64,000 nt of DNA from Halobacteriovorax sp. (GCA_002720865.1 PBIO01000025.1:17-64016); one strand, 5' to 3'; positions 44,775 through 61,442 are shown, counted from the stretch's first letter. The notes: generated by a model from the letters alone, not told the origin. A program made the numbers and translations.

Positions 44775-44817
44775 AACTCACCTATAGATTAGTAATTTAT
44801 CGATCACCTATAAATAA

Positions 44818-45531: not shown

Positions 45532-45551
45532 GATATCCTATATTAAAGTCC

Positions 45552-46064
45552 CTAATCATTGCAATTATCTTTAATTGCCTTGTCAACCGGCTTAGTGTCT
45601 AACTCTCCCCATCTTTTAGATTGAATTTCTTGATATTTTTTTAAGCACCCATTACATAACGTCCGGATCCATCCTTTGGTATTTTGTTTTCCCGGGGCTC
45701 CACATTCTTCGCATGTATAGTCAGACATTGCTTCTGCCATGGCAATCATTCCGCTGGTCCTATCATCACCACCGTGATAATAAAATCGAAGTCCTCCATA
45801 CTTTTCTTTAACCTGAACTGCTTCTACCTGAGGTATGGGCTCACGGTTGCATTTAAACTTCTGCTTTTGATCTTCATATTTTCCGGTACAATTATTCCAA
45901 TCAATATGTTGTTGGATATTCGTACAAAGGACATTTAAAATGTTATACCACCCATCACCTGTCTCGATGCCCCAACACATTGCTGTCTCTTGCATAGAAA
46001 GATCTTTTTGCCGAAATATCTTTGGATATTTTTCAAATAATTTATCTTGTAACTCTTGTTTCAT
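45552..46064 (-). CDS. hypothetical protein with C-terminal CxxC...CxxC
   Basis: CEECGAPG...CNGC. Confidence 0.6.
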   Translation of the reverse strand: MKQELQDKLFEKYPKIFRQKDLSMQETAMCWGIETGDGWYNILNVLCTNIQQHIDWNNCTGKYEDQKQKFKCNREPIPQVEAVQVKEKYGGLRFYYHGGDDRTSGMIAMAEAMSDYTCEECGAPGKQNTKGWIRTLCNGCLKKYQEIQSKRWGELDTKPVDKAIKDNCND

Positions 46065-46299
46065 ATTTTTCCCTCACTAGTTTAAGTTTTGCTTGGGCCA
46101 ATATGGCATAACGTGCAATAACCTCATGAGATTGAACCTCACCATAATAATTTCTAATATAGTTGCATAAAAACCCTATATCGACCTCATACTCTTCAAT
46201 TTGTTGCATGAATTGGTCGTTATGTGTATCCATGAAACTATCATAAATAATATCACATTTAGTCCTGTATTTTTGCGCTGCTTCTAACGGAGTCTTCAT
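46042..46299 (-). CDS. hypothetical protein
   Basis: start moved to ATG 46299 (GAGAGGTGG RBS): MKTPLEAAQKY. Confidence 0.5.
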   Translation of the reverse strand: MKTPLEAAQKYRTKCDIIYDSFMDTHNDQFMQQIEEYEVDIGFLCNYIRNYYGEVQSHEVIARYAILAQAKLKLVREKYETRVTR

Positions 46300-46513
46300 A
46301 AGCCACCTCTCTTTCACATTCCATCCAGGCATCATAAACATCCTCGAAATAATCAAGTTCTATAATCGAATGTATCGAAATAATACCATTTGACCATGCA
46401 ACTAAAAAAGTAGTATCACCTAAACTATTACCATCATCCCTAGATACAATTATCCCAGGAATAGAATGATCGTTAAATGAATATCCTCGGACCACCATGT
46501 CACCTGACTTCAT
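46259..46513 (-). CDS. KOW-like MKxGDLV-family protein
   Basis: MKSGDMVVRGY...PGIIVS. Confidence 0.6.
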   Translation of the reverse strand: MKSGDMVVRGYSFNDHSIPGIIVSRDDGNSLGDTTFLVAWSNGIISIHSIIELDYFEDVYDAWMECEREVAYEDSVRSSAKIQD

Positions 46514-46736
46514 TTAAGTCCTCAAGCTGATAGGTTAATGCTTCTTCTAAATAGTCTAATTCTACATCCATTTCACGAGATGTGTTACCATCAGACCATG
46601 CTACAATAAAATTATGATCCGTATGTGCTACAAAGTCATCTCCATCTGGGTGATGTACCAACTCTTCATCAACAATAATGCCAGGAACAAATGCGCGCCA
46701 TGCATATGCGCGTACTACCATATCACCTATTTTCAC
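46500..46736 (-). CDS. KOW-like MKxGDLV-family protein
   Basis: GTG 46736 (GGAGTG RBS): (M)KIGDMVVRAY...PGIIVD; 14-nt overlaps on both sides. Confidence 0.6.
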   Translation of the reverse strand: MKIGDMVVRAYAWRAFVPGIIVDEELVHHPDGDDFVAHTDHNFIVAWSDGNTSREMDVELDYLEEALTYQLEDLNEVR

Positions 46737-46944
46737 AGACACACTCCTTAATGCCGATGACAATCGATTCTTCAATGCACTTAGGGCACCTGATATATTC
46801 TACACCCTTATCTTTATCATTCATTTGCCAGTATAGTGCCCACTCTTCTCCGAATGTCCGAATGAAGCTCCACGGACCAACAAACCAATCAATACAACAC
46901 TCAGGGATACCAGAATGCCTTCCACACTTAACATGATAATTCAT
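46723..46944 (-). CDS. Cys-rich small protein
   Basis: start ATG 46944: MNYHVKCGRHSGIPECC...CPKC. Confidence 0.5.
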   Translation of the reverse strand: MNYHVKCGRHSGIPECCIDWFVGPWSFIRTFGEEWALYWQMNDKDKGVEYIRCPKCIEESIVIGIKECVCENR

Positions 46945-47150
46945 TTTAAAATAATCCGTAAGTCCCGCCGGCGGGCAACACAAAGATCACCGACGGGGTC
47001 TAGGTATATAACTGCCGGCTCACGCTTATTCGGTTTGAAAGCCTCTTCTGTAATCATTATAACAATTCCCGTCTTTCCCCACTCCCCATCTCGCACCATC
47101 GGATCGGTTGGGAGCCTATCCCTATACTTAACCAAATCACCTACCTTCAT
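46941..47150 (-). CDS. KOW-like MKxGDLV-family protein
   Basis: MKVGDLVKYRDRL...GIVIMI. Confidence 0.6.
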   Translation of the reverse strand: MKVGDLVKYRDRLPTDPMVRDGEWGKTGIVIMITEEAFKPNKREPAVIYLDPVGDLCVARRRDLRIILK

Positions 47151-47400
47151 AAATTAATTGAACCTTTTTTTGTTTGGTAAGCTTCTTAAAATAACTCTCT
47201 GCCTTTTGGGCGCTAGATCGATCTTCACATTCTTCCCAATACACTAATGAGACCGGACGTCGGGAACGTGTATATTTTGCACCCCGGGAACCTTCATTAT
47301 GTTCTAGAACCCTACGCGGTATATCTGTTGTAACACCGGTATATAACGTATTATCACTACACTCTACAATATAAACAAACCACTTTTTTTTAGTCATCAT
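47137..47400 (-). CDS. GIY-YIG domain protein (stand-alone, YhbQ/UPF0213-like)
   Basis: WFVYIVECSDNTLYTGVTTDIPRRVLEHNEG; start ATG 47400. Confidence 0.8.
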   Translation of the reverse strand: MMTKKKWFVYIVECSDNTLYTGVTTDIPRRVLEHNEGSRGAKYTRSRRPVSLVYWEECEDRSSAQKAESYFKKLTKQKKVQLIYEGR

Positions 47401-47578
47401 CAACCAGCTCAAGCTCATCCTTATACAGGTGCTCAAATTCGCCTGTTGGCCAAAATATTAATCCGGCTGGAGGTAACGTCAGATCATTTACCTCAACAAC
47501 AATCCCGACAGTCCTACCAAGCACATCAGTATATTCTTGTATACTTTGATTGACCCTGACAAGATCTCCGACTTTCAT
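47390..47578 (-). CDS. KOW-like MKxGDLV-family protein
   Basis: start ATG 47578: MKVGDLVRVNQS. Confidence 0.6.
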   Translation of the reverse strand: MKVGDLVRVNQSIQEYTDVLGRTVGIVVEVNDLTLPPAGLIFWPTGEFEHLYKDELELVDDD

Positions 47579-47775
47579 AGTTCGCATATTAACTCAACAT
47601 GATCTTTAAGAAATGAAAAAGTTTTTTTATGTTGGGACGGAAAAATAACCTTGATTGCGCCCTCAAATTCTTCGATTATTAAGCCCAATTCGTCAACCGG
47701 TGCATTTCTTTGAGCTGCCCTACGTTTTGATGCAAAAGTAACCCACTTAAGTTTAACAAGATCTCCGACTTTCAT
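47575..47775 (-). CDS. KOW-like MKxGDLV-family protein
   Basis: MKVGDLVKLKWV. Confidence 0.6.
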   Translation of the reverse strand: MKVGDLVKLKWVTFASKRRAAQRNAPVDELGLIIEEFEGAIKVIFPSQHKKTFSFLKDHVELICEL

Positions 47776-48107
47776 TAATGATTCCGTTTACCGTCAAATA
47801 CACATACAAATGTTAAATCCTCACATGAACTATCATTAAATACCTTATGAAATGCGCCATCCGGAATTAAGACTACATCACCTGGTCGGACGGGAAAGGT
47901 CTCATCAGCCACCATCATCACTCCTCGACCATGGACAAATTGGTATACCTCTTCCTGGCCGGGATGCGTGTGGCCTGTTGTCTCCTTATTTGGGTGCAAA
48001 ATTGTCTTAGATACCACCAGGCCCTGCAGTGATGTATTATCAATCACAATATACGTGCCATTGTTCTTTACGATCTTACCGCTAATATCGTCGGTATTAA
48101 CTTTCAT
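47775..48107 (-). CDS. cupin-domain protein
   Basis: GHTHPGQEEVYQFVHG...PDGAFH cupin motifs; start ATG 48107 (AAGGAGAGGAA RBS). Confidence 0.75.
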   Translation of the reverse strand: MKVNTDDISGKIVKNNGTYIVIDNTSLQGLVVSKTILHPNKETTGHTHPGQEEVYQFVHGRGVMMVADETFPVRPGDVVLIPDGAFHKVFNDSSCEDLTFVCVFDGKRNH

Positions 48108-48331
48108 TTCCTCTCCTTGAATGGTGCACAATTTACCTTAAGGGTATCATTATCTTTTATGAACTGAATCCTATCACCTTCTTTGATTGTACATGGAATC
48201 ATAGAACGAGGGATATGCATATACTCTAGCTTATTATCAGACATCTCAAACTCAACCAATACAGCGTTTCCGTGAATTTGGTCAATTACACCAAAGAAAC
48301 AAAATGCCAATAGTAGACTAAGCGTTTTCAT
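48104..48331 (-). CDS. small secreted protein
   Basis: signal peptide MKTLSLLLAFCFFG. Confidence 0.55.
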   Translation of the reverse strand: MKTLSLLLAFCFFGVIDQIHGNAVLVEFEMSDNKLEYMHIPRSMIPCTIKEGDRIQFIKDNDTLKVNCAPFKERK

Positions 48332-48597
48332 TGTTGTACCGACTCAACTGATGTGTGAAATCCCTCGATGTCCCAAACCTGATCAGCTGCCTCTAAGGCA
48401 TCATCCATGGTATCGAACTTTAAGGCCTTATTATTACCCCACCCTTCGACTACTTCAACCTTACCTGGTGGCCAGGCACGATTCCAGTTAGGATCAATAT
48501 CTGATACGAACTCATTAGTTCCGCCAATTCGAATTGTAAAAGGCCCTTTTTCACGATCATCTTCGAAAAATGTTACTCCGGGATGTAAACTACTCAT
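48328..48597 (-). CDS. hypothetical protein
   Basis: 89-aa ORF, ATGA overlap. Confidence 0.5.
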   Translation of the reverse strand: MSSLHPGVTFFEDDREKGPFTIRIGGTNEFVSDIDPNWNRAWPPGKVEVVEGWGNNKALKFDTMDDALEAADQVWDIEGFHTSVESVQQ

Positions 48598-48766
48598 TAA
48601 TTACCTCAAATTCAGATTTATCTAAAAACCATATACCATTCTCAAATGAAACAGCCCAAACAGATCCTTCTCCAGGATCTTCATATAAAAGTACTCCGCA
48701 CCAGGTTAATTGTACATCAACCTTCTCTATTAAATTAGTTAATCTAACTAAATCGCCTGACTTCAT
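48590..48766 (-). CDS. KOW-like MKxGDLV-family protein (58 aa, not in ORF track)
   Basis: MKSGDLVRLTNLIEK...; ATGAGTAG overlap downstream. Confidence 0.55.
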   Translation of the reverse strand: MKSGDLVRLTNLIEKVDVQLTWCGVLLYEDPGEGSVWAVSFENGIWFLDKSEFEVINE

Positions 48767-48953
48767 TTACTAACCTCACACGTCTCTGGAGAATCCAGCC
48801 GATTCCTACATCCCATAATACCTCAACGATTAATTCATTTGATAAACCAGTATTTCGAGACCTATAAACATCGGTGTTTGTTATTATACCTACAGTTCTT
48901 CCTTGTGACTCGTCCGGATGGTCATTATATTCAACCAGGTCACCAATCTTCAT
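48744..48953 (-). CDS. KOW-like MKxGDLV-family protein
   Basis: MKIGDLVEYNDH...GIITN. Confidence 0.6.
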   Translation of the reverse strand: MKIGDLVEYNDHPDESQGRTVGIITNTDVYRSRNTGLSNELIVEVLWDVGIGWILQRRVRLVNEVRRFS

Positions 48954-49162
48954 TACACAGTCTCCATATCATCAACAGGAAATCTATACGCTCCAGATTC
49001 CGAAATGCATTCAACAACTGGGTCAATTCTAAATTGATGTGTATGAGATATAACATCAGTTACAAGCATGATCTCATCGAATAGCCAGCAATCATATACA
49101 GCTTCATGAGGCTCTTCACCTCTAAGCTCCTTTCGAATTCGAACCAAGTCACCGACTCTCAT
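48953..49162 (-). CDS. KOW-like MKxGDLV-family protein
   Basis: MRVGDLVRIRKEL. Confidence 0.6.
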   Translation of the reverse strand: MRVGDLVRIRKELRGEEPHEAVYDCWLFDEIMLVTDVISHTHQFRIDPVVECISESGAYRFPVDDMETV

Positions 49163-49376
49163 GAATTTCCCTTAGTTGCCAATCATAAAAGTCCATCTCC
49201 TCGCCCGTGGAGGGGATTAATACGTTAACTACCAATGTGACGTCTTCCTCATCATTGTCGGCGCGCCAGGCAAGCTTAGAATTAAGAACGATACCGAACC
49301 TACCACGGTTACATTCACCTGCTGCTGCATGATCTTCAATTTGCACTAACGCGCCAATGGTCATATTATCATCCAT
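49149..49376 (-). CDS. KOW-like family protein
   Basis: MDDNMTIGALVQIED (start at 49376 or 49364); ends EIHESR with the 14-nt overlap. Confidence 0.5.
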   Translation of the reverse strand: MDDNMTIGALVQIEDHAAAGECNRGRFGIVLNSKLAWRADNDEEDVTLVVNVLIPSTGEEMDFYDWQLREIHESR

Positions 49377-49560
49377 TCTTTTGAAGTGGTACCACAGTAT
49401 AATGTGCACATCGACGTAGCGCACCATGCAGAAGGACAATATAATCAATTGACATCATCGACCCACCCCGCCTAGATTGTTGATCAATCTTTGTTATAAT
49501 GCCGATCAACTCTTCAGGAGATTGTGGATCATCGACTTGTACCAGGTCACCGACGTTCAT
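49369..49560 (-). CDS. KOW-like MKxGDLV-family protein
   Basis: MNVGDLVQVDDP...IGIITK. Confidence 0.6.
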   Translation of the reverse strand: MNVGDLVQVDDPQSPEELIGIITKIDQQSRRGGSMMSIDYIVLLHGALRRCAHYTVVPLQKNG

Positions 49561-49738
49561 TCATTTCTCCAACGCAATAATTGTAACCATCTTCTGACAT
49601 ATCTCTAATCTCTTCCATACAATCCATAATAGAGTACATACGGTCGGTATTTGGGACTACCCATGCAAAATACCACATCATACATAGCATCATAATTGCT
49701 GCAACAAAAATAATATTTGAGATAATTTCTTTACTCAT
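49547..49738 (-). CDS. small membrane protein
   Basis: start ATG 49738: MSKEIISNIIFVAAIMMLCMMWYFAWV. Confidence 0.5.
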   Translation of the reverse strand: MSKEIISNIIFVAAIMMLCMMWYFAWVVPNTDRMYSIMDCMEEIRDMSEDGYNYCVGEMNERR

Positions 49739-49913
49739 TAATCGACCCCACGTTACACTCACTAATTAATACTAAAGTTTTAAGATCACACCATTTGTCA
49801 CATTCGACCCAACCCTGAAATGCTACCCACGCGTACCCTTCATCTATAGATGTTATTAGACCGAGCCCTAAATGCTTATGAATAACATGCTTTACCAGGT
49901 CGCCGGCTTTCAT
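49731..49913 (-). CDS. KOW-like MKxGDLV-family protein
   Basis: MKAGDLVKHVIHK...GLITS. Confidence 0.6.
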   Translation of the reverse strand: MKAGDLVKHVIHKHLGLGLITSIDEGYAWVAFQGWVECDKWCDLKTLVLISECNVGSINE

Positions 49914-50374
49914 GAAGTACCCTGCACATCTTTAGGCATATGACGAAAAACAAAATATGGGTAATAGTCATCCATATTGTCAGTTCCAAACTCAAGCCAG
50001 ATATGGCCATCATTTACATCAACTAACCGATACCCTTGGCATGCTTCTGAGCCCCAGCTATCTCCCCTTTTTTCTCCATCATACACTTCAATACGAACTT
50101 TACCAAGTGATGTACGAAAGAAAATAGAGTTTGACTGGCTGCCGTACTCAATCACTCCGAGATGTGATCGGTAACCATCATCCGGATCTTCAAGCACCTT
50201 GAAAATAATATCGTCAAGCTTAAACTCATGTGCAGCATCGTCAGCACCGAAGTATTCAAGTTCCATACCTTCAAGGGCTGAGAAATGCGCAAATACTTGC
50301 TTCCAATATGGGCGGTGGCGCTCATTCTCGTCCCAATCCTCATTGGCGCTATGTGAGAAATAATCTGGTATCAT
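49910..50374 (-). CDS. hypothetical protein
   Basis: 154-aa ORF. Confidence 0.55.
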   Translation of the reverse strand: MIPDYFSHSANEDWDENERHRPYWKQVFAHFSALEGMELEYFGADDAAHEFKLDDIIFKVLEDPDDGYRSHLGVIEYGSQSNSIFFRTSLGKVRIEVYDGEKRGDSWGSEACQGYRLVDVNDGHIWLEFGTDNMDDYYPYFVFRHMPKDVQGTS

Positions 50375-50619
50375 AGTCGGCTCATCCTAATTGCTTCTGA
50401 AATATTTCTTGTAAAGTCGCTGTTGAACTCGTCACACTCTGGGCGATCTGGGCGCCGGCCGTGGACCTTGAGTGCACTGGTTACCTCATCATCCTTAATA
50501 GAAAAACTAATTGTCGTGCCATTTTCCCTAACATCGATCCATTGCTCATAACTAGCGCACTGTTCTTCCGGCAAGTATCCGTTTTTTAAAAGTTTATTTT
50601 GTAGAAGTTTAAGCTTCAT
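50371..50619 (-). CDS. hypothetical protein
   Basis: start ATG 50619: MKLKLLQNKLLKNGY. Confidence 0.5.
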   Translation of the reverse strand: MKLKLLQNKLLKNGYLPEEQCASYEQWIDVRENGTTISFSIKDDEVTSALKVHGRRPDRPECDEFNSDFTRNISEAIRMSRL

Positions 50620-50824
50620 GAGCCACCTCAAATTTATCTGTAGCAAAGTCAGAAACCGTTGCCTTCCGACCATGGTATGGGATAGGCTGGACCCATTCTA
50701 CACGAATGTGCTTAATACCATCCTTTGATATCGACGGACCGGCAATGATGATACCGAGCTGACCAAAAAACCATTTGGCGTATGTTCCATTATCTGTAAA
50801 CATTACTACATCACCGATCTTCAC
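50609..50824 (-). CDS. KOW-like MKxGDLV-family protein
   Basis: GTG start with AGGGGA RBS: (M)KIGDVVMFTDN...GIIIAG. Confidence 0.6.
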   Translation of the reverse strand: MKIGDVVMFTDNGTYAKWFFGQLGIIIAGPSISKDGIKHIRVEWVQPIPYHGRKATVSDFATDKFEVAHEA

Positions 50825-50825
50825 T

Positions 50826-51119
50826 TTATTCCCCTACTAGTTCTTGTGCAATTTTTTCTGATAGCCATACATATGGATCACCATCCCTTGCTTTTTGTGT
50901 ACCATATGGCATTTCGTCACGATAATATTCTAGAAATATTTCATAAGGTGATATGGGCCAGCCGGTAACTGGATCTTTACGAGAAGTAGTAGCAAACCCT
51001 ACATCATCGCCGTCAAGGACGAATGCCAACGTTGCAGCAATTTCTTGTGCATTTAGGCCGATTCCGTATTCATGAACAAGGCCGGTCAAAAAATGACCTG
51101 TATCTAAAACTTTACTCAC
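50826..51119 (-). CDS. hypothetical protein
   Basis: 97 aa, GTG start in a GTGAGTAA overlap. Confidence 0.5.
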   Translation of the reverse strand: MSKVLDTGHFLTGLVHEYGIGLNAQEIAATLAFVLDGDDVGFATTSRKDPVTGWPISPYEIFLEYYRDEMPYGTQKARDGDPYVWLSEKIAQELVGE

Positions 51120-51321
51120 TGATTACCTCAATCAAATCTTTTTGGATTGTACTAATTCGATCACCATTAGGTGCATTACGTTCGAACCACATAACCTCCG
51201 CACAAGTATATGCAGAGCCTACCGACCCATTTGATGCCTTTCTTTTAAAGGTGCGCATTCCCATAAAGAGACCCATCTCTTCAGGGTATTTTTTATTTTT
51301 TACCAAATCACCCGGCTTCAT
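51112..51321 (-). CDS. KOW-like MKxGDLV-family protein
   Basis: start ATG 51321: MKPGDLVKNKKY. Confidence 0.6.
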   Translation of the reverse strand: MKPGDLVKNKKYPEEMGLFMGMRTFKRKASNGSVGSAYTCAEVMWFERNAPNGDRISTIQKDLIEVISE

Positions 51322-51502
51322 TAATTGCCTCAACATCCTTTCGCATATTACGTCCAATAGCACCATCCAAAAAATTCCAGCTTACATAAACCCAATTTGT
51401 TTCAAGTTTAGTAATAATACCAACAGCGCTAGGGTCATGACCCTCTGTAAATCTTACCAAGTCTCCAACTTTCAAAAGAAGCCGTTTACCATATGATTTC
51501 AT
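51308..51502 (-). CDS. KOW-like family protein
   Basis: MKSYGKRLLLKVGDLVRF...GIITK. Confidence 0.55.
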   Translation of the reverse strand: MKSYGKRLLLKVGDLVRFTEGHDPSAVGIITKLETNWVYVSWNFLDGAIGRNMRKDVEAINEAG

Positions 51503-51735
51503 ACAATCACCTCAAAAGTACTTTGGCCATAATTGCCGCAGCGTACCGTTTCGCCATCGACGGAAAGCACAACGTCACAGTAACCAGATAGAGGCGGATT
51601 ATTAAGCCTATCCGGCCGGACATCAATTACCACCCCAACATGCCCAGGCTCGATGGGCTTCCACCCACGGCTCTCATTGACTACTGGGTTTGTGCGTACG
51701 TACATAACATTTCTTACCATGTCACCGATTTTCAT
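51499..51735 (-). CDS. KOW-like MKxGDLV-family protein
   Basis: start ATG 51735: MKIGDMVRNVMY...GVVIDV. Confidence 0.6.
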   Translation of the reverse strand: MKIGDMVRNVMYVRTNPVVNESRGWKPIEPGHVGVVIDVRPDRLNNPPLSGYCDVVLSVDGETVRCGNYGQSTFEVIV

Positions 51736-51925
51736 TTTTAATCTCCTTAAGGTCGCCAGTATCAGCGCCCATTGTTTCACCGTTATCGTAAAGCACCAAC
51801 CATTCCCATTCAAGAATATCTCCTGCAGCAAGAGAGCTGGTGCCTTTACCCACTTCAATATTGGGACCGTCGATTACAATACCACTCCTACCGAGGGCAT
51901 AATCAAAAATCAACTTACCAATCAT
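51722..51925 (-). CDS. KOW-like family protein (diverged)
   Basis: start ATG 51925 (GGAG RBS): MIGKLIFDYALGRSGIVIDG. Confidence 0.5.
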   Translation of the reverse strand: MIGKLIFDYALGRSGIVIDGPNIEVGKGTSSLAAGDILEWEWLVLYDNGETMGADTGDLKEIKNENR

Positions 51926-51926
51926 C

Positions 51927-52166
51927 TTATCTCCAAAGAGTGACGAGAGTTCCAAACTCCCGATCGAAAGTATAAAGTAGGCCCTCATAATCCGATAGCC
52001 TCATCTCGTCAAGAACACGTTCGGTATACATATCATCATATCCCAACTTCTTGCAGAGACTTGAGGCAAGGCCTAATAGATAATATGCATTACCCTTTGG
52101 GCCGGTAAGATCAACTTCAATCGGCGTTGGGCCCCGCGGACGATCTCTCAAAGATTTGATAGCCAT
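51927..52166 (-). CDS. hypothetical protein
   Basis: 79-aa ORF. Confidence 0.5.
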   Translation of the reverse strand: MAIKSLRDRPRGPTPIEVDLTGPKGNAYYLLGLASSLCKKLGYDDMYTERVLDEMRLSDYEGLLYTFDREFGTLVTLWR

Positions 52167-52441
52167 TATACAACCTCCACATAATTTGTGGTCTGGTCAG
52201 ACCAGGTAGGTGTTCCGTTAACTGGAGGGGTAACAATACGGCCAACCCGGCGATCTTCTTCCTTACCTCCAAAAACATCACGATCCACAAGGATACGATA
52301 TCGTTGGCATCCCTCGATGTGATCGAAACCAATAACCTCACCCTCAACGTAACATGCTCGTTCTCCAGAAAGGTCGCGACCATAACCATCATCCTGAGCA
52401 AAGTCGAACGAACGAACTCGATTTCCAATTTGAATGTCCAT
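52166..52441 (-). CDS. KOW-like family protein (diverged, G+C-rich)
   Basis: MDIQIGNRVRSFDF...GEVIGF; own TTCGTGCAA-class promoter. Confidence 0.55.
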   Translation of the reverse strand: MDIQIGNRVRSFDFAQDDGYGRDLSGERACYVEGEVIGFDHIEGCQRYRILVDRDVFGGKEEDRRVGRIVTPPVNGTPTWSDQTTNYVEVV

Positions 52442-52466
52442 AATGTTTCCTCCTTGGTATGGTTAT

Positions 52467-52499
52467 ATTATACAACAGGAGGCACCAAATTGCACGAAA
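52467..52499 (-). promoter_or_regulatory. TTCGTGCAA-class promoter (P9)
   Basis: TTTCGTGCAATT, 17-nt spacer, TATAAT (52472-52467). Confidence 0.7.
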
Positions 52500-52636
52500 A
52501 TGTCAGATTAAAAAGCCTATTGTTATTATATAGTTACGCCTAGGGTCCTCTAGAGACCATTTTATGACCTCCCAGGCACCTATTGGGGCTTATAAACAAA
52601 CTAATATATGGTGTATAATTGCAAAAAGGAGTGTTT

Positions 52637-52957
52637 ATGGGACTAATTGATGTATTGGCGCAACTTATTCCGGGCCTTGGTACCAGAGAACGAGAAAGAT
52701 CAAAATTAGCTAAAGAAAATTTAGCACTTTCAGAAAAACTACTGCATGCAGAACAAAAAAATGCCGCCATGCTTCAAAAGTTGTTTCATGGTCGGCAAAC
52801 ACTAGAACAAGAAATTAATGATATGTATAGAATGTATGATGAAGGAGTACTTGATCGAATGCAGGATCCTGTAAAAGGCCTTGTCTGTCTATACACTCAT
52901 ATGGTTTGTTCACATCTTGGTTTCGAAAATCCGATACCTATTGAGTTTGATGCCTGA
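52637..52957 (+). CDS. hypothetical coiled-coil protein
   Basis: AAGGAG RBS before ATG 52637: MGLIDVLAQLIPGLG. Confidence 0.6.
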   Translation: MGLIDVLAQLIPGLGTRERERSKLAKENLALSEKLLHAEQKNAAMLQKLFHGRQTLEQEINDMYRMYDEGVLDRMQDPVKGLVCLYTHMVCSHLGFENPIPIEFDA

Positions 52958-53101
52958 TTCATTTAATAGCTTTGCACGGTATATTGAAAACTGTTGGTAC
53001 GATTGGCCTCCCTGGACTAGTTCAAGCTCTTCATCGCTTAGTTCTGTTACATCTTTAAGATCTTCTTGTGCGGCCTGAGGCTTATTTGTTTTCATCTTCA
53101 T
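52910..53101 (-). CDS. precursor peptide with double-glycine (class II bacteriocin / prochlorosin-type) leader
   Basis: MKMKTNKPQAAQEDLKDVTELSDEELELVQGG followed by a 31-aa core; L-12 S-11 E-8 L-7 V-4 G-2 G-1 all match the GG-leader consensus; weak RBS; 48-nt convergent overlap with the + gene. Confidence 0.55.
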   Translation of the reverse strand: MKMKTNKPQAAQEDLKDVTELSDEELELVQGGQSYQQFSIYRAKLLNESGIKLNRYRIFETKM

Positions 53102-53333
53102 CTTCTTTTTGAGACTTTTTGCTCCACTTATCTTTGGGCATTAATTTTTCAATTCTGAAGCTTAAAGCTTTCATACCATTAACAGTAGGCTGTCCAAGGT
53201 CATCTACACCTATTTCTTTAACTGTTGTTCTTTTATTTTTAAAACGACCGGTAAGAATAATGTCACCCTTTTCTAAATCTAGCTCTAACATTTCCCTTAT
53301 TATCATTCTTAATTGACGCTCAGTAGTCTTCAT
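53082..53333 (-). CDS. KITKRQL-leader family protein (diverged leader)
   Basis: start ATG 53333: MKTTERQLRMIIREML. Confidence 0.6.
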   Translation of the reverse strand: MKTTERQLRMIIREMLELDLEKGDIILTGRFKNKRTTVKEIGVDDLGQPTVNGMKALSFRIEKLMPKDKWSKKSQKEDEDENK

Positions 53334-53856
53334 TGTGGTGCCTAATTGTAAGAGCATGTTCCAATGATTGCTCAAGTTCTTTAGTAATCCCTGTCAGAGC
53401 GTTGTATATTGCACCTAGTACTTTAGGGTCGGGCTCACCATGTGGACCAGCATATCCGAGCTCTGCTACAAGGTCCATTATTTGTTGATATGCATCCTCA
53501 TACGTAGTCTGATCTGCACCATCGTAGCCATATGGCCCTTTTTTGAGCTCTTCTTTGATATTTTTAATACGCCTGGAATATTGCTTAATTGCATTTTCAG
53601 CAGCATAAAGGTACGGGCGGCTATAGTCTTTAGCAGGCATGCCCTCTTTTTCCCTAATACTATCTATATCATTTCGAAGTGAAAGAAGATCTTCTATAGA
53701 GACATTAATATCATCGCTAGCGCCCATGGGACTAAGAAGCTGACCGTTTATAAAAGACACCAGCCTATCTTCACGCGATTCAAGACTTTGAAGGCTTGGC
53801 ATGCCCACCATCGATTCTCTAATAATTTTCCTAAGCTGTCGTTTTGTAATCTTCAT
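53320..53856 (-). CDS. KITKRQL-leader family protein
   Basis: MKITKRQLRKIIRES. Confidence 0.7.
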   Translation of the reverse strand: MKITKRQLRKIIRESMVGMPSLQSLESREDRLVSFINGQLLSPMGASDDINVSIEDLLSLRNDIDSIREKEGMPAKDYSRPYLYAAENAIKQYSRRIKNIKEELKKGPYGYDGADQTTYEDAYQQIMDLVAELGYAGPHGEPDPKVLGAIYNALTGITKELEQSLEHALTIRHHNEDY

Positions 53857-54153
53857 TTACCTGCGGTTCCTTGTTGCCGGTGAAGTATGATGTTCTTCAG
53901 GGGGAATGGTCTTAGACTGCCTAACTTCTCTAGCGACAACCTCTAGAGCATGTGCAATACTCTCAACATATATAGGATTAATCCATACATCTTCGCCGAT
54001 CATATCCTGAGAAAATTCTTCCTCGATGTAGTTCCAAACTCCATTTTGTACGCCACGTGAGATGCCCTCTTCAACATCCGGGCTCATCTCAGAAAGAAGG
54101 CGCGCTTTCTCTTCTTTAATGATTCTTCTTAGTTGTCTCTTTGTGGTTCTCAT
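53857..54153 (-). CDS. KITKRQL-leader family protein
   Basis: MRTTKRQLRRIIKEE. Confidence 0.7.
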   Translation of the reverse strand: MRTTKRQLRRIIKEEKARLLSEMSPDVEEGISRGVQNGVWNYIEEEFSQDMIGEDVWINPIYVESIAHALEVVAREVRQSKTIPPEEHHTSPATRNRR

Positions 54154-54194
54154 AATGTTATTTCCTTAAGTCCCGGTGCATCCCAACTGGGTGG

Positions 54195-54989
54195 TTACCG
54201 GCCTGCTGCCCGGGTGAAAATCTTGATTATCTCTGATAGCGCATGCGCTTCTTCATCATTGGCCGGAGGTTCATAAAAATAATATTCTCCGATCCACCGA
54301 GTTCCGTGTGGGCCTGGAGAAGGGGAGACAGCTTCGGCCATGGCTAAAATAATCTTGAGTACCCCTACCTGGGTCGGCTCCGGCGGATCCTCTGGTAAAT
54401 CTTTACTGAAACTGCCACCATAACCTTCGGTGCTCATAGTATATTCAACGGCTTTAGAGATGTACCCTAGAATTCCACTGGCCCCATGTCGCTCTAAAAC
54501 ATCCTGGTATCGGTTATCCTGAGGGCCTTTGAATGCTTTATGAAGATGAAAATCGAATTGCCTTGCAGTTGCTAGATCTGTCTGATATTGATCCACATCA
54601 GCCTTGCCGCGTCCAGAATCCCACCAGCTCCCCTTGAACCATGCAGGTGTAGATATACTCTTCCTACCCTTCTTCCTGCCCTTCTTCCTGCCCTTCTTCC
54701 GAGGAAGAGTGGCAGCCAAAGTATCTAACCAGCCTGGTTGATTATTGGATATCCAGTCTAATTGTTCATCCCAATCCAGGTCTTGTTCATATCCCGGGAT
54801 TTTTTCCCATAAACCTGCATTAACTAAGTCATCTGCCAAAGCATTAGCGCCGTCGGTCATTGAATGCATATCCGATATTTCATCATACTTTGCATATAAC
54901 CTATCATATGCTGGCCCGCCACCCTCTGAAATGACCCGGGCCACTTCTTCTTTAATGATTCTTCGCAGTTGGCACTTGGTAATTTTCAT
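54195..54989 (-). CDS. KITKRQL-leader family protein
   Basis: MKITKCQLRRIIKEE; internal (KKGR)3. Confidence 0.7.
   Translation of the reverse strand: MKITKCQLRRIIKEEVARVISEGGGPAYDRLYAKYDEISDMHSMTDGANALADDLVNAGLWEKIPGYEQDLDWDEQLDWISNNQPGWLDTLAATLPRKKGRKKGRKKGRKSISTPAWFKGSWWDSGRGKADVDQYQTDLATARQFDFHLHKAFKGPQDNRYQDVLERHGASGILGYISKAVEYTMSTEGYGGSFSKDLPEDPPEPTQVGVLKIILAMAEAVSPSPGPHGTRWIGEYYFYEPPANDEEAHALSEIIKIFTRAAGR
54667..54700. repeat. 12-nt tandem repeat inside a CDS
   Basis: cccttcttcctg x2 plus a partial third copy, encoding KKGRKKGRKKGR on the minus strand. Confidence 0.8.
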
Positions 54990-55390
54990 TATACTTTATC
55001 CCTTTTCGAAAGTACTGATACTCCAATTGCAGAATATATTTCCGGACCTACATGGTGATTAACTTGTTTAAGCTTTATACCCTGCCAATTAATCGGGGGC
55101 TCCAAATAATCAGTCGGAGGAAGTGCTGCACCCTCCGCTTTTAAAGCTTTCCATGCTATGTCCCTATCAGACTTGTCATCAAAAATAACCATGTTTCGAA
55201 TAGAGAACATCGTTTGCCCGCCTTTGCCTCTTTCTGATCGTTGTCCGGATTTTGGAAGGTTATTTAGAGGCTGGCCACCAAAGCGGTCTGCTATAGCAAC
55301 AGTTGCAGACCCTACATCCCATTGATTTTCTGAAAGCATTTCAAGTTCTTCTTTAATGATTCGCCTGAGTTGTCTTTGAGTAATTTTCAT
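54989..55390 (-). CDS. KITKRQL-leader family protein
   Basis: start ATG 55390: MKITQRQLRRIIKEE. Confidence 0.7.
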   Translation of the reverse strand: MKITQRQLRRIIKEELEMLSENQWDVGSATVAIADRFGGQPLNNLPKSGQRSERGKGGQTMFSIRNMVIFDDKSDRDIAWKALKAEGAALPPTDYLEPPINWQGIKLKQVNHHVGPEIYSAIGVSVLSKRDKV

Positions 55391-56373
55391 TTTAAAATCC
55401 CAGCCAACCTTTGCCATTTTTCGATAAGTAGATCATCCCTGGTTTTTCTTGACTCTGTTTTTGTTGCATTTCCAAGAGCATTTCCAAGAGCAGTAAGAAA
55501 CTTAAGTGTGCGTTTCTCATCACCAAGAGATTGTAGATCAACTTGTCCTGCAGTGCCTAGTGATGCTGAAGGATCGTTCAACATCGTTGCTGCCCACCGA
55601 TGATGGCCATCAAGGATCTCTCCGTTCGTACCTGCCCAAGCATCTAGATCACCCCCTGCAATTTGGTTTTTTGGGTTCATTGCCATCCCTAGGGCCTTGT
55701 ATATAAGAATATTTGATTGGGTTGGTATAGCATCGCTTGCAGGAACTGATCCACCCTTAACAACCTTGATATCATCATCATCTTTATTCCCATCATTTTC
55801 TTCATGGCCGGATGTCATAAATTCTTTAGATTCAGCGTCATCCATACCTACAAATGTATTGGGCGCAGGAGGTACATTAAACTTTCCCCTCTTAAGATTT
55901 ACTTTTCTTTCCTTAAGGGCCCTGATGTTTGATACATCATTCTTTTGGACGGCTTCATTGTGTGTGTCAATATTAAACTTGCCTCCAGGCGAAAGAGCAT
56001 CAACTACTTGATCGACTGAACCTTTGGCATCTTCCGGGCCAGGAAGAAACGGCATGACAGACTTAGGTAATCCAGAAGTTGGTATTTTTGATGCCAACGT
56101 TTTGATTCTAGAAGCAACTTCCTCAGGTCCAATTTTTTCTACCCACTCCTTTGCCTGTGCACCGTTAGTAGCGAACCACTGGCCTTGAGTTGATTTAACA
56201 ATTGGGGCATTATCATCTCCGGAAAGTAGCTGATTTACTATTTCGATTGGGTCAACATCTTTAACATTTGTTGACTTATCAACTGCGTCGCCCCGAGGAG
56301 CATCACCAATTTTACCGGTTGATTTCTCCTCTTCTTCAAATAAGATACTTACTAAGCTTGGAATTTTTTTCAT
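55387..56373 (-). CDS. ParB-like nuclease-domain protein (no leader motif)
   Basis: ILDGHHRWAATML, a ParB/Srx-fold DGHHR motif; embedded in the leader-family array. Confidence 0.6.
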   Translation of the reverse strand: MKKIPSLVSILFEEEEKSTGKIGDAPRGDAVDKSTNVKDVDPIEIVNQLLSGDDNAPIVKSTQGQWFATNGAQAKEWVEKIGPEEVASRIKTLASKIPTSGLPKSVMPFLPGPEDAKGSVDQVVDALSPGGKFNIDTHNEAVQKNDVSNIRALKERKVNLKRGKFNVPPAPNTFVGMDDAESKEFMTSGHEENDGNKDDDDIKVVKGGSVPASDAIPTQSNILIYKALGMAMNPKNQIAGGDLDAWAGTNGEILDGHHRWAATMLNDPSASLGTAGQVDLQSLGDEKRTLKFLTALGNALGNATKTESRKTRDDLLIEKWQRLAGILK

Positions 56374-56843
56374 CCTGATGTCCTCATCGGTCCTTCAATT
56401 ATTTCATTTAAAAATGCCACAAAATTCTTAGCACTTTTCTTATCGTGGATGCTAAGTGCTTTTTTATCATCGACATATATTTCCATGGTCAGACCATCCC
56501 ATGTCCACGCAGCCTTAATATTACCAATCCCGATTATGTCCTCTTCCCTAACTGGATCCCGCGGGCCAGATTGTTCTTTTTTCTTTTTGCCCCAAAACTC
56601 AGATAATTTACGAATTTCTTCTTTAATAAGTGCAGAAGGATCATGACGGCGCATACCAGAATCCCACCTAACCGAAATTTGCCTGTCTCTTTTATTTGAT
56701 TTTGCAACAACACGGCCAACACCAAGGTGCGCATCGTCCTTATGGCGAACGATATCACCTACCGTGATGTTAAACGTAGGCCTAGACTCTGAGAATAATT
56801 CTTCTCTAATAATCTTTCTTAGTTGATGCTTGGTAATTTTCAT
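56370..56843 (-). CDS. KITKRQL-leader family protein
   Basis: start ATG 56843: MKITKHQLRKIIREE. Confidence 0.7.
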   Translation of the reverse strand: MKITKHQLRKIIREELFSESRPTFNITVGDIVRHKDDAHLGVGRVVAKSNKRDRQISVRWDSGMRRHDPSALIKEEIRKLSEFWGKKKKEQSGPRDPVREEDIIGIGNIKAAWTWDGLTMEIYVDDKKALSIHDKKSAKNFVAFLNEIIEGPMRTSG

Positions 56844-56844
56844 C

Positions 56845-57189
56845 TTACCATTCTCCGGTGTCATTGCCATCTTCATCTAGCATTACAGCATATTCTTCAA
56901 GCTCTTCATATGTTGTAGCCATAGTAGTAGAAAAACTATTCGGATATTCATCAGATGCAGCAGCTGACATTATATGGCCATACCAATAGCGGAACGCCCT
57001 GGCTTCAATCGACCTATCTGGTACTAGCTTGGTAATCTCGAGCGCTTCTTCTGTTAGTACTTGAATCTCTTGCATGATATCCTTAAATCGATATAGATCA
57101 TTCTCATCTAGGCCCTCAAATTGCTCTTTAAGAATACGAGATTTTTCCTCACGAATTATTCTTCTTAACTGTCGTTTTGTAATTTTCAT
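56845..57189 (-). CDS. KITKRQL-leader family protein
   Basis: MKITKRQLRRIIREE. Confidence 0.7.
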   Translation of the reverse strand: MKITKRQLRRIIREEKSRILKEQFEGLDENDLYRFKDIMQEIQVLTEEALEITKLVPDRSIEARAFRYWYGHIMSAAASDEYPNSFSTTMATTYEELEEYAVMLDEDGNDTGEW

Positions 57190-57491
57190 TATCGTAACCC
57201 AAACTCTATAAGCTCTTCAGCATCATCAATAATCGTGCCAAGATAATCTGACAACTCTGGGAACAGTTCATAAAGAGATTCTTCCACCTCTTCGCGATCG
57301 CCTCCACCCTTAAAGATATTAACAGCTGTATCCCTGGCTTCCATTTCTATGTCCATGATCTTGGGTTCCCAGCCACCCTCAGGTTCTCCATACATGGTAC
57401 CATCATGTGGATTAGCCTCACGATCAATAAAGAAATCTTTCTCAATAGTTTCCTTGATGATTCTTCTTAGTTGCTTTTTTGTAATTTTCAT
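57189..57491 (-). CDS. KITKRQL-leader family protein
   Basis: MKITKKQLRRIIKET. Confidence 0.7.
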   Translation of the reverse strand: MKITKKQLRRIIKETIEKDFFIDREANPHDGTMYGEPEGGWEPKIMDIEMEARDTAVNIFKGGGDREEVEESLYELFPELSDYLGTIIDDAEELIEFGLR

Positions 57492-57492
57492 T

Positions 57493-58281
57493 TTAAAGTT
57501 CCCTGTATATATCTGCTAATGCTTGCTTCAAATACTTTCGGCCATTTTCCCCTAGCTCAGCAAATAATTGCGATAAAATCTCCTTTACAGAATCCTTATT
57601 GTTCGCTGCGTCAATAGCAACTAGAAGAGGTTGTACGCCACTTTTATCTAGTGCAATGTCTGCTTTTTTTCCTGCAGCAGTCTTTGATTCTGCACCGGCA
57701 TCAGCAGAAGCTTCATCTTCAGGATTTTCTTTAAGAATTTCTTCTCTAATAATTTGCCGTAAGCGGCTTTTCGTTATATTCATTGCTTTATTCTCCCATT
57801 GTCTTTGTGCACTTTTTGTTTTTAGACGTTTACCCATTCCAGATCTCTGAGGTACTTTTTCATAGTCTAAATCTAATCCAGGTACCTGTAGGGCTGCTAG
57901 CTCCTGTCGCTCTTTTTCCCACTCTGCTTCACGCTCAGCATTAAATGCATCATCTTCTGCCATAGCTTCAGCTTCACGATCTAAGTCATCAATCGCCGCT
58001 TGAACTTGTGCGACTGTCTCAAACCTTGCCCAACGTGGTCGGATACCATGAAGCGATTTGAATGCGTCTGAGTACGTCTGAGATAAGATCTCAAAGGCTA
58101 ACTCTTCTCCAGTTGTAATACCTCTCTCTTCCCAAAATGACTGATCTGTAACAAGGGTCATACCATATAATCCTGGGCCAGCTTGGGCATTAATTTTCTC
58201 AGCTTCTTCCTGTGCAGTAGGTGCAAAGCCTGACATAGCTTCACGAATTATCTTCTCTAGTTTTTTGCGACTAATTCTCAT
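57493..58281 (-). CDS. KITKRQL-leader family protein with two leader copies
   Basis: MRISRKKLEKIIREA at the N-terminus and an internal MNITKSRLRQIIREE. Confidence 0.7.
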   Translation of the reverse strand: MRISRKKLEKIIREAMSGFAPTAQEEAEKINAQAGPGLYGMTLVTDQSFWEERGITTGEELAFEILSQTYSDAFKSLHGIRPRWARFETVAQVQAAIDDLDREAEAMAEDDAFNAEREAEWEKERQELAALQVPGLDLDYEKVPQRSGMGKRLKTKSAQRQWENKAMNITKSRLRQIIREEILKENPEDEASADAGAESKTAAGKKADIALDKSGVQPLLVAIDAANNKDSVKEILSQLFAELGENGRKYLKQALADIYREL

Positions 58282-58290
58282 GTTATCATC

Positions 58291-59667
58291 CTAATCATAA
58301 TATGGCATCATCGGTGGACCCTGGGGCGGCCGGCGGCCCAAGGTTTTTCCTGCTCTTCTGTTCAGGAAGTCTAAAAATTTTGGAACATCAATCTGATCTT
58401 TTGGAACAGCCACCTCACCAACACCATGTGATATACTATCTGGTGCGGAAAGCCTTATATACCTCTTATACTCTTTCCATCCTAGGGTCTTTAAATCCTC
58501 AGGGGTGACCGTGGATGTAAAATGGTTTGCCAATAGTTCTAGCCATTCTTTATCTGGGTCAGATGTTATAGCACTACTTTGTCGAGCTTTTTCTATTTTC
58601 CACGCTTCATTTTCTATTGCATCAGTGTCACGACGTGTCACACCATTGCTGTACAATAGATCTGCTAGTTCACTATCATCTAAAAATACTGGTAAATCAG
58701 ACCACCCAAATATTGGCAATAATATCTCTGCAGCCTCCTTATATTTTTTTGCTTTGGCAAGTGGAACTACGACAGCTGCAATTTCATCATCACTATTCTT
58801 TGCAGTAAGGGTTTCATTAATGATCCCTGCTATCTTTAAAATCCTATTATATGAAGCGGCAATCGTTTCTTTAGCAGGATCTTCACCTGATATCCATTCT
58901 CCATATTTCTTAATATATTTTGAGACTCCGTTGCTAATTCCTGTGTATACTGTATCAGCAACAATATCCTTGAATATCTGTTTACTAGGCCGGCTATTAC
59001 CATACCCAAAACTATAAGAGCTCTTATTTTCATCTGGCAACGAGCTATATAAATCCGCAACTTCCTTACTGTCAGCCCACTCGGTATAGCCTGATGCGAT
59101 ATCTGCTGAGGCATCTTGCCCGTATTGAAGCACATAATCTCCGGGGCTATCCCATTGTTGGTAGCTGCTTCCATCTTGCCACATCTTAGGATTATTATAG
59201 GCATCATGCATAGTATCCATGGCCCAATCTTCTCCGCCGGCTTCAGCATCATTCAATATTTTTTCTTTGAGAGCTTCATATTTTTCTTCAGCTTCTTCTT
59301 CCTGGCGCTTTTCTTCAGCTTCAGCTTCATCTTCCCTGGCAAAATGCGCATCCCAGTCGTAGTCGGGATCTGACTCATCTGTAATCGGGCCTTTTTCTTC
59401 AGGCTCTATATACCACTGACTGTCTGGGTACCACTCTTGCTCTTCCATGGATTCACCAGCTGGAATCATCATTTCAAATGATTCCGGATCTTCAACATCT
59501 GTCTCTACCTGATCACCTGGTTCGAGCTCATCCAAGAACATCTCCATATCAGCAGTCGTTTGAAATTCTGGAACAGTATATCCTGCATCATACTCTTTAA
59601 GAAGTCTTTTTGCACGGATCACTTCTTCCTTGATGATTCTTTTCAGTTGTCGTTTTGTGATTTTCAT
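58291..59667 (-). CDS. KITKRQL-leader family protein (largest, 458 aa)
   Basis: start ATG 59667: MKITKRQLKRIIKEE; acidic body. Confidence 0.7.
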   Translation of the reverse strand: MKITKRQLKRIIKEEVIRAKRLLKEYDAGYTVPEFQTTADMEMFLDELEPGDQVETDVEDPESFEMMIPAGESMEEQEWYPDSQWYIEPEEKGPITDESDPDYDWDAHFAREDEAEAEEKRQEEEAEEKYEALKEKILNDAEAGGEDWAMDTMHDAYNNPKMWQDGSSYQQWDSPGDYVLQYGQDASADIASGYTEWADSKEVADLYSSLPDENKSSYSFGYGNSRPSKQIFKDIVADTVYTGISNGVSKYIKKYGEWISGEDPAKETIAASYNRILKIAGIINETLTAKNSDDEIAAVVVPLAKAKKYKEAAEILLPIFGWSDLPVFLDDSELADLLYSNGVTRRDTDAIENEAWKIEKARQSSAITSDPDKEWLELLANHFTSTVTPEDLKTLGWKEYKRYIRLSAPDSISHGVGEVAVPKDQIDVPKFLDFLNRRAGKTLGRRPPQGPPMMPYYD

Positions 59668-59965
59668 TATATTCCTCTTCCGGTATGCTACTTTCGACGT
59701 CATCAGCCAAGCCACGGAGGTCGGCAGCTAACTCATGCCATTCCGACGGATTCGTTTGATCCATTGCTTGATTTATTATGTCAGCAAGGGTATGCCATAG
59801 TGGTTGATCATAAGAGCGGCCTTTAATCTTAACGCTTGAAAGGCTTCCTCGTTGAGCATCCATCTTTGCTGCTGCGATCCCCATATCAGCAGGAGTCATT
59901 TCATTTATTAGCTTAGAATGTTCTTCTTTAATGATTCTTTTTAATTGTCGTTTTGTGATTTTCAT
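59597..59965 (-). CDS. KITKRQL-leader family protein
   Basis: MKITKRQLKRIIKEE; its 3' end reads 71 nt into the next member's leader in another frame. Confidence 0.65.
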   Translation of the reverse strand: MKITKRQLKRIIKEEHSKLINEMTPADMGIAAAKMDAQRGSLSSVKIKGRSYDQPLWHTLADIINQAMDQTNPSEWHELAADLRGLADDVESSIPEEEYNENHKTTTEKNHQGRSDPCKKTS

Positions 59966-60720
59966 TAGTCTAACCTTACGTCAATAATATCTGGCACCAT
60001 ACGCTTAAGTTCTCGTAAACCAGCTGGATACATACTTCCAGGCATCTCAACTACTATGTCGATTGCCGTACCGTTATCACCTAGTTCCATTACAACACCT
60101 GACATTTCGTCACCAGGTTGTATTCCGCCATATTCATCTTCATAATCTTCCCATGCATCGAAGCCCATATAGAATGTACCACTGCTTGGGCTGTAGCCAA
60201 GATAAGACTCCTGCCCTTCGCTATATCCGGATCGTTGAAGATACTGCCAGGCCTCACCAACACCGGGGCCCTCATAAAATACCTGATATACGTTTACTCC
60301 ATCAACCATTACACCTTCAGGCCAGGCGGCACTAACTTGTTCTTCGGTAACATCTGGATCCGTAAGTTCGGCCGTGATACCACTCATATTACTTTCAGAA
60401 AGCCCTTCTTCTGATTCTGCAGCTGCCTTAAGGGCAGCTTTAGCTCTTGCGCGCCGGGTTTCAGAAGCTTTTCGGGCCCGATAATCCGCGGGGGACTCAT
60501 CACCATACGGATTTTCTCGGCCGTAATAGTCAGCCTGTCTCTCGTTCCGGGTCCGTTGCGCTTTACGTGCACGATAGTCTGCTGGAGACTCGTCACCATA
60601 TTCGTTGTCAGGGCCATGGAGTCGATCGTTTAATCTTCTTTGAGCCTCAGGTGAACGTTCAACAAGTCTTGAGATCTCTTCTTTGATTATTCTTCTTAGT
60701 TGTTTTTGTGTAATTTTCAT
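59965..60720 (-). CDS. KITKRQL-leader family protein
   Basis: start ATG 60720: MKITQKQLRRIIKEE; internal duplicated YGDESPADYRARKA. Confidence 0.7.
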   Translation of the reverse strand: MKITQKQLRRIIKEEISRLVERSPEAQRRLNDRLHGPDNEYGDESPADYRARKAQRTRNERQADYYGRENPYGDESPADYRARKASETRRARAKAALKAAAESEEGLSESNMSGITAELTDPDVTEEQVSAAWPEGVMVDGVNVYQVFYEGPGVGEAWQYLQRSGYSEGQESYLGYSPSSGTFYMGFDAWEDYEDEYGGIQPGDEMSGVVMELGDNGTAIDIVVEMPGSMYPAGLRELKRMVPDIIDVRLD

Positions 60721-61441: not shown

Positions 61442-61442
61442 T

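Follow-up and report, generated by a model that had tools for sequence, protein, structure and literature searches.

A Conserved Family of Peptides with Double-Glycine Leaders on Phage-Like Marine Contigs

Introduction

The genome of a large uncultured marine phage carries a small gene for a peptide with a bona fide double-glycine-type leader, and sequence comparison places this peptide in a family of no fewer than 45 sequence clusters, not described before and so far found only on phage-like marine contigs. The gene lies on the minus strand of the 64,000-nucleotide stretch of DNA analysed here (the window), which forms part of an uncultured marine phage contig of 176,782 bp; all contigs of the source phage are 99.98–100% identical to each other. 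Double-glycine (GG) leaders serve as the address label of a main bacterial peptide-export route. They are carried by bacteriocins, including those of class II, by competence and quorum pheromones and by prochlorosin/NHLP-type precursors, and are removed by C39-peptidase ABC exporters. For the phage peptide we lean, with modest confidence and on the basis of its sequence, towards a mechanism in which a C39-type exporter or protease of the host would cleave the GG leader, and the unmodified core would be exported from the infected cell as a signal-like or competing peptide.

Results and Discussion

The peptide gene had originally been predicted as a minus-strand ORF of 63 aa at 52910..53101, which re-reading of the sequence reproduced exactly. 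A second ATG at 53095 yields a form of 61 aa (52910..53095, minus strand, stop codon at 52910-52912), and both forms are present in public gene calls from NCBI, ENA and Logan records (P0001 with 61 aa, P0002 with 63 aa). Scored with a codon-usage model trained on 41 long ORFs of the window, the peptide frame reaches +0.285 bits per codon, the top value of the six frames; 40 small minus-strand ORFs average 0.156 ± 0.105 and off-frames −0.33 ± 0.21. Between the stop of the gene upstream on the minus strand (53082) and that of the convergent gene on the plus strand (52957), 124 nt would stand empty without the peptide ORF, and no terminator-like hairpin was found in this gap. Codon usage, the terminator-free gap and the conserved homologues described below bear out the ORF as a genuine gene belonging to a large uncultured marine phage.

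The start of the peptide gene overlaps the stop of an 83-aa gene upstream (53082..53333, minus strand, beginning MKTTERQLRMIIREM) by 14 nt when translation begins at 53095 or by 20 nt when it begins at 53101, an arrangement that makes translational coupling plausible. Its SD is weak, as the original prediction had rightly cautioned. A 4-mer SD core, however, precedes just 49 of the 128 ORFs of the window, so that most genes of this phage do without an SD and the weak SD of the peptide gene is no counter-argument. A second caveat concerned the convergent gene, which is of unassigned function (52637..52957, plus strand, 106 aa, strong AAGGAG SD, codon score +0.284) and was said to overlap the peptide gene by 48 nt in antisense. 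The overlap is present in the sequence, and the C-terminal 15 residues of the peptide are the antisense of this conserved neighbouring gene, a point which we count against our preferred explanation. The caveat is nevertheless less serious than had been thought, because the conserved part of the core ends exactly at the start of the overlap and because a relative on contig L007 has none. We also considered the 14-nt start/stop overlap as a phage-wide signature and rejected it, as the recurrent 14-nt junction ATGAAAATCGGTGA is that of tandem MKIGDLV paralogues, to which the junction of the peptide gene is unrelated. These paralogues of ~65 aa, starting MK(I/V)GDLV, form tandem arrays (window ~46000..52500, minus strand; L014:3500-11000; L001) in which each start overlaps the preceding stop by exactly 14 nt via this conserved junction.

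The leader MKTNKPQAAQEDLKDVTELSDEELELVQGG (53006..53095, minus strand) comprises 30 aa, or 32 aa if counted from the ATG at 53101, and is acidic with a pI of 4.1 and a charge of −5.5. Its last 13 residues, ELSDEELELVQGG (53006..53044, minus strand), are the predicted docking segment for a C39 peptidase, with cleavage predicted after G-1. All seven positions highlighted in the original prediction (L-12, S-11, E-8, L-7, V-4, G-2 and G-1) are there, as is a V at −15, and the peptide thereby shows each feature of the published GG-leader consensus (PMC6363468), namely a GG, GA or GS end, hydrophobic residues at −4, −7 and −12, and E-8. The motif sits ~20 residues from the ORF start, the position expected of a leader. 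A six-frame translation of the window contains its strict form, LSxxELxx[ILVM]xGG, a single time, and none of 200 second-order Markov randomisations contains it, while a looser form ending in G[GAS] appears on average 0.005 times per window in such randomisations, in agreement with the earlier rough estimate that a chance match to all seven positions would be improbable.

Homologues of the peptide were found along several routes. An exhaustive phmmer search of 1.84 billion representative proteins returned P0006 (E = 6.5e-6), whose identity to the window peptide is 54% within the matched stretch and 50% in the trimmed alignment; common to both are MKT.K, TEL[ST]DEELE.V.GGQS and LLNE. Its 515-bp Tara contig L007 is syntenic with the window in that the same convergent gene follows (...LEQEINDMYRVYEEG...PPEFDA*), here lying 6 nt beyond the end of the peptide ORF, hence without overlap. 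A degenerate DNA pattern for EL.DEELE.V.GG retrieved five GG-leader ORFs from IMG/VR viral contigs, three of which also have the core of the window peptide, and a profile search with five sequences led to 45 short proteins of 47–123 aa, all from marine metagenomes (JGI, ENA, Tara, Logan) and several of them annotated by JGI as 'bacteriocin-like protein'. Common to all 45 are ELxDEELExVxGG and a core of fixed spacing, GG-x5-F-x2-W/Y-x5-N. A separate route, via the relatives of a tagged neighbour gene (see below), arrived at the 185-kb viral contig L004, which has a family member of its own. In L004 and in P0036-P0039 a small domain of the MKxGDLV type precedes the GG-peptide module as an in-frame fusion; judged by sequence, these fusions fit a resemblance to the domain-sized leaders of Nif11/NHLP precursors and are equally compatible with an internal linker. 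Searches of 50,697 phage records gave nothing for the locus by blastn and noise only for the peptide by tblastn, and literature searches turned up no account of a family of orphan GG-leader peptides carried by large marine phage contigs.

An alignment of 31 members shows E-13, L-12, L-7, E-6, V-4, G-2 and G-1 to be invariant, so that the GG motif, whose loss in related phages would by the original prediction have spoken against an exported peptide, is retained throughout. Conservation reaches at least 90% at D-10, E-9, E-8, F(+6) and N(+15), and either W or Y occupies +9. The C-terminal tail and, within the leader, the N-terminal portion (18 to >40 aa) are free to vary. For the peptidase ComA a substrate consensus of L-12 x3 E-8 L-7 has been described, and for the C39 domain of LahT the last 13 leader residues are enough and varied cores are tolerated (PMC6363468); the family-invariant leader residues are exactly the positions that contact the C39 domain in this published biochemistry. 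The homologues bear as well on the possibility of a chance ORF in the spacer between convergent genes that acquired a GG-like motif by accident. Such an accident might well be short, poorly endowed with an SD and in overlap with a convergent gene, as the peptide ORF is, yet the motif is expected only ~0.005 times per window, the codon score of the frame is the best of the six, and the open frame is kept in homologues with conservation at the protein level across 45 clusters. This conservation effectively excludes the chance reading, to which we attach hardly any probability.

A scan with GG-leader profile HMMs, which had been suggested as a check, matched exclusively double-glycine-leader families (six NCBIfam and three Pfam profiles), and together with the positions conserved across the family this supports the N-terminus as a bona fide double-glycine-type leader. 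The scan does not extend to membership in a known family, as the window peptide stays below every curated cut-off. Its best match is NF038167 (CTB family bacteriocin, cyan_ocin_like) with E = 9e-5, where the alignment spans the end of the leader and 11 core residues; membership was rejected at 22.6 bits against the required 32, a whole-protein cut-off under which the relatives (13.9–17.9 bits) fall as well. TIGR01847 (bacteriocin_sig) has a cut-off of 15.7 bits, which the window peptide misses by 0.7 bits with a score of 15.0, while its relatives P0006 (17.8), L011 (16.1) and L012 (15.9) lie above it and L008 (14.1) lies below. TIGR03898, TIGR03893, TIGR03798 (Nif11 leader) and TIGR03949 also match below cut-off. 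Assignment as a Nif11-leader RiPP precursor was rejected, with 12.4 bits against 32.3 for TIGR03798 and just profile positions 45-68, the leader end, aligning. Likewise rejected were the Pfam families Bacteriocin_IIc (PF10439, 14.4 bits against a gathering threshold of 27.1), Mersacidin (PF16934, 14.6 against 27.6) and L_biotic_typeA (PF04604, 13.0 against 21.7), all with E-values of 0.03–0.1 and with the leader end alone aligning.

Since the leader end is of the same type as that of Nif11/NHLP RiPP leaders, the peptide could in principle be the precursor of a post-translationally modified product made with tailoring enzymes of the host or the phage, and in L012 the gene immediately downstream encodes an AurF-like di-iron protein, albeit as a weak match (E = 1e-5) below cut-off. 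The core argues in the other direction, being devoid of Cys and poor in Ser/Thr and lacking any repeated motif. LanM, radical-SAM, YcaO and glycosyltransferase tailoring enzymes are absent among the Pfam families listed for the window (in one of the scans, 25 of the 37 matched families) and beside the relatives, and neighbouring genes are not conserved between subfamilies. We rejected a lanthipeptide or other RiPP precursor on these grounds and regard the modified product as very improbable.

Cleavage after G-1 would release the predicted mature peptide QSYQQFSIYRAKLLNESGIKLNRYRIFETKM of 31 aa and 3.8 kDa (3826 Da unmodified, before any pyroGlu formation), with a pI of 10, a charge of +3.8 and a GRAVY of −0.74. 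It is weakly amphipathic, and the cores of the other subfamilies are still more hydrophilic. Core residues +3 to +16, YQQFSIYRAKLLNE (52958..52999, minus strand), make up a conserved helix according to the alignment and AlphaFold, and are followed by the tail SGIKLNRYRIFETKM (52913..52957, minus strand), which is encoded on the strand opposite the 3′ end of the convergent gene and is not conserved in the family. Run with the family alignment, AlphaFold predicts one short helix in the leader and another helix in the core, at residues 33-46 (pLDDT ~75–78 there), with an overall pLDDT of 66.6, a pTM of 0.34 and no confident fold. The first ~16 residues of the core are thus modelled as a conserved helix with the pattern GG-x5-F-x2-Y/W-x5-N. 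Its hydrophilic, weakly amphipathic and Cys-free sequence makes a classical pore-forming class II bacteriocin less likely, and the core appears more pheromone-like than pore-former-like.

With regard to the exporter, Pfam scans (one of which listed 25 of its 37 matched families), a motif regex and a custom C39 HMM agree with the original prediction that no C39/PCAT gene is visible in the window. The HMM was built from three cellular PCATs and run on 321 kb of phage sequence, where its sole match, a weak one (E = 1.8e-4, ORF 30901..32418), was discarded, as the catalytic Cys is absent from the alignment and Pfam assigns the ORF to DUF2201 metallopeptidase/VWA. No C39 peptidase or ABC exporter was found in ~80 kb of the 176.8-kb phage contig (the window together with ~8.8 kb of left and ~7 kb of right flank), within ±10 kb of the relatives in L008, L011-L017 and L137-L144, or in ~250 kb of related phage loci overall, and the same holds for a cognate exporter, defined as PF03412 plus ABC. 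For control purposes, we ran this HMM on 119 cellular loci with the same leader end, fetched at up to 8 kb per locus. A C39 gene was present in 8 of them, which leaves 93% of these cellular loci without one within the DNA fetched. Precursors without an adjacent exporter are thus the usual case, and the lack of one in the phage DNA speaks only weakly against the export model.

The missing exporter does figure in a different account of the same sequence, in which the gene encodes a small phage protein that would escape both cleavage and export and whose acidic helix, GG turn and basic helix would act inside the infected cell, for instance as a binding partner of a host protein or of nucleic acid. 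Its likeness to GG leaders would then be convergent or vestigial. The two helices parted by the GG region in the AlphaFold model, the hydrophilic core, the register of leader and core that is fixed across the family, the in-frame fusions to an upstream domain and the location among small phage gene arrays typical of host-takeover regions are all in line with this account. We nonetheless judge it fairly unlikely: the invariant positions are those that contact C39 (L-12, L-7, V-4 and GG) while the remaining leader varies freely in sequence and length, GG-leader families are the only profile matches, and AlphaFold finds no confident packing between the helices at the pTM given above.

The peptide gene is the next gene downstream of a block in which 18 consecutive minus-strand genes (53082..63753) that are otherwise unrelated and encode 78–458 aa have a common N-terminal tag of ~15 aa, M[KR]ITKRQL[KR]RIIKEE; the 83-aa gene upstream of the peptide is the last of them. 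Between 7 and 14 tags of this kind are present in the relatives L005, L006 and L146, a comparable gene block with a different tag, MKLLIENWRxFLxE, occurs in the unrelated viral contig L013, and a literature search found no match for the sequence M[KR]ITKRQL[KR]RIIKEE. The tag may be a capsid-targeting, packaging or processing signal. By extension, the peptide leader could be a pro-peptide or sorting signal of the phage itself, removed by a phage protease or directing the peptide into the virion. The co-oriented position directly after the tagged genes points this way, as does a 415-aa ORF in L013 that starts MPKEDGELTDEELEIVVGG and sits among the genes with the other shared tag; the tag end I-K-E, moreover, has what we take to be a resemblance to the T4 prohead-protease site (L/I)xE. 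Most family members, however, occur in other contexts with no tagged genes near, no phage protease cutting after Gly-Gly was identified (the C39 HMM from three sequences gave one spurious match), and the motif agrees in detail with C39 substrates, which renders a phage-own sorting signal improbable.

Coming back to cleavage and export by the host, which we favour, the last 13 leader residues would form a helix that places L-12, L-7 and V-4 in the hydrophobic groove of a C39 cysteine-peptidase domain. This domain would be part of a host PCAT/AMS-type ABC exporter or a stand-alone LahT-like protease, and after the cut behind GG the unmodified core would leave the infected cell. There it might act as a ligand or signal of the ComC-/BlpC-type pheromone kind, or it might be a competing substrate that occupies the exporter. 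The hydrophilic and weakly amphipathic nature of the core favours these roles, which seem more likely than that of a membrane-permeabilising bacteriocin.

In its overall layout the peptide is close to the precursors of class II bacteriocins and pheromones (TIGR01847, ComC/CSP, BlpC, colicin V), sharing with them the short precursor, a leader of 18–32 aa with L-12, S/T-11, E-8, L-7, V/I-4 and GG, a predicted mature part that is unmodified, cationic and ~25–45 aa long and, with the pheromone precursors, a variable mature end as in pherotypes. It differs from them in residing on a large marine phage, in having no PCAT, immunity gene or two-component sensor nearby, and in its hydrophilic core with a family-specific F/W/N helix, which is present in none of the 119 cellular loci with the same leader end. 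The leader end EL.DEELE.V.GG itself is shared with cellular precursors of the Nif11, NHLP and bacteriocin kinds from many phyla, with examples in Prochlorococcus and Synechococcus. To Nif11/NHLP precursors (prochlorosins, TIGR03798) the similarity extends to the last 13 leader residues (..ELSDEELExVxGG), the orphan state far from a single exporter or protease, the marine setting and, for some phage family members, a whole small domain fused upstream in the manner of a long leader. In contrast to these precursors, the peptide is phage-borne, has no Nif11/NHLP domain and lacks Cys and the Thr/Ser pattern of lanthionine rings.

A double-glycine-type leader peptide in a phage genome has a precedent in sublancin 168, encoded by sunA in the Bacillus subtilis prophage SPbeta. 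SPbeta is a temperate phage of a Gram-positive host and carries the complete cluster with sunA, the C39 exporter SunT, modification enzymes and the immunity protein SunI (PMC6391423). The phage-borne precedents known in general are whole bacteriocin clusters located on temperate Firmicutes prophages (PMC6391423; bioRxiv 10.1101/2020.10.01.322628), and Dragos et al. described biosynthetic clusters as extremely rare in virion-derived genomes (bioRxiv 10.1101/2020.10.01.322628). Here, unlike in these complete prophage clusters, a conserved precursor family stands alone on large uncultured marine phage contigs. Compared with SPbeta, the marine phage has a lone precursor with no exporter or immunity gene found, and its genome is full of small-gene arrays with no lysogeny genes seen. 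A further parallel, by functional analogy only, is arbitrium, in which a small phage-encoded peptide likewise undergoes processing and leaves the infected cell, as we propose for the present one. The arbitrium peptide AimP relies on a Sec signal and extracellular proteases and is accompanied by the receptor gene aimR and by aimX. No aimR, aimX or Sec-type features were seen at the marine phage locus, and there is no sequence similarity.

A wider form of the export hypothesis holds that large marine phages maintain a dedicated, diversifying orphan GG-leader family that hijacks a host C39/PCAT exporter and thereby releases a phage-specified peptide. We consider this broader claim unlikely as it stands. 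If it held, the peptide could, by analogy, be a signal of infected cells, arbitrium-like with another export route, or it could jam or re-purpose the bacteriocin or quorum export of the host. Cleavage and export would mean that phages release peptides of their own during infection via an export machine of the host, and would open a testable route to phage–phage and phage–host signalling in the sea, or to interference with host peptide export. The family offers defined, short substrates for in vitro work with promiscuous C39 domains, and its conserved leader could also be a clue to the host.

In one GG-peptide subfamily, the peptide gene overlaps at its 3′ end with the gene that follows it, which encodes a Flp/Fap-type pre-pilin-like peptide (..RGQG/MTEYVIILVSIAIV..), with loci at L014:1477-1656, L139:1137-1310 and L137:6223-6357. 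The match to Pfam Flp_Fap (E = 7.7e-6, 26 bits) remains under the cut-off of 32, and no such gene is found in the window. Two adjacent phage peptides of this subfamily thus both bear host processing signals; if the hijacking of a host exporter were true, the pre-pilin gene would suggest a broader feeding of phage peptides into processing and secretion machines of the host.

Genomic Surroundings

The surroundings of the family members (L008, L011-L017, L137-L144) are all phage-like, with tandem ~65-aa genes, methyltransferases, Hc1 and GP88. The phage of the window encodes PhoH, a PrkA-DUF444-SpoVR operon, ThyX and a tmRNA as well as long arrays of small genes. Its large proteins are ~30% identical to proteins of jumbo phages and Thermus phages, a level from which neither a cultured relative nor the host can be deduced. 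Halobacteriovorax, the name given at NCBI, is the label of a MAG bin and was not taken as evidence for the host. The tmRNA (4143..4505, minus strand; Rfam RF00023, 117 bits) with the tag peptide ANNNDNFEYALAA was considered as a host clue as well, but it is of the standard one-piece type and no host was identified from it.

The stress-kinase operon of PrkA (YeaG), DUF444 (YeaH) and SpoVR (YcgB) is complete (8068..12546, minus strand), and the phage PrkA shows ~30–33% identity to its counterparts in Thermus phages, metagenomic megaphages and a Ralstonia jumbo phage. At 2917..4128 (minus strand) a 403-aa protein with a weak tubulin match (PF00091) may be a PhuZ/TubZ-like phage tubulin; the adjoining 92-aa ORF (2642..2920, plus strand) matches sigma-70 region 4. 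The segment 28000..36000 is a G+C-rich island (0.47–0.51, compared with 0.36–0.41 for most flanking sequence) that may have been acquired horizontally. It contains the DUF2201 metallopeptidase/VWA gene mentioned above (30901..32418), which PHROGs annotates as an HNH endonuclease, and a MoxR-like AAA ATPase (33118..34200). Among the ORFs of 110 aa or more within 34299..63750, one gives a match to the ribosomal protein L7/L12 C-terminal domain (PF00542, E = 1.2e-11); a simple motif search did not pinpoint its position. Just past the right end of the window, genes for Fe-S assembly (IscA/HesB-like Fe-S_biosyn and NifU) are located at L146:5163-5787, and in L012, another phage with a GG peptide, an IscA-like gene lies ~1 kb from the peptide gene.
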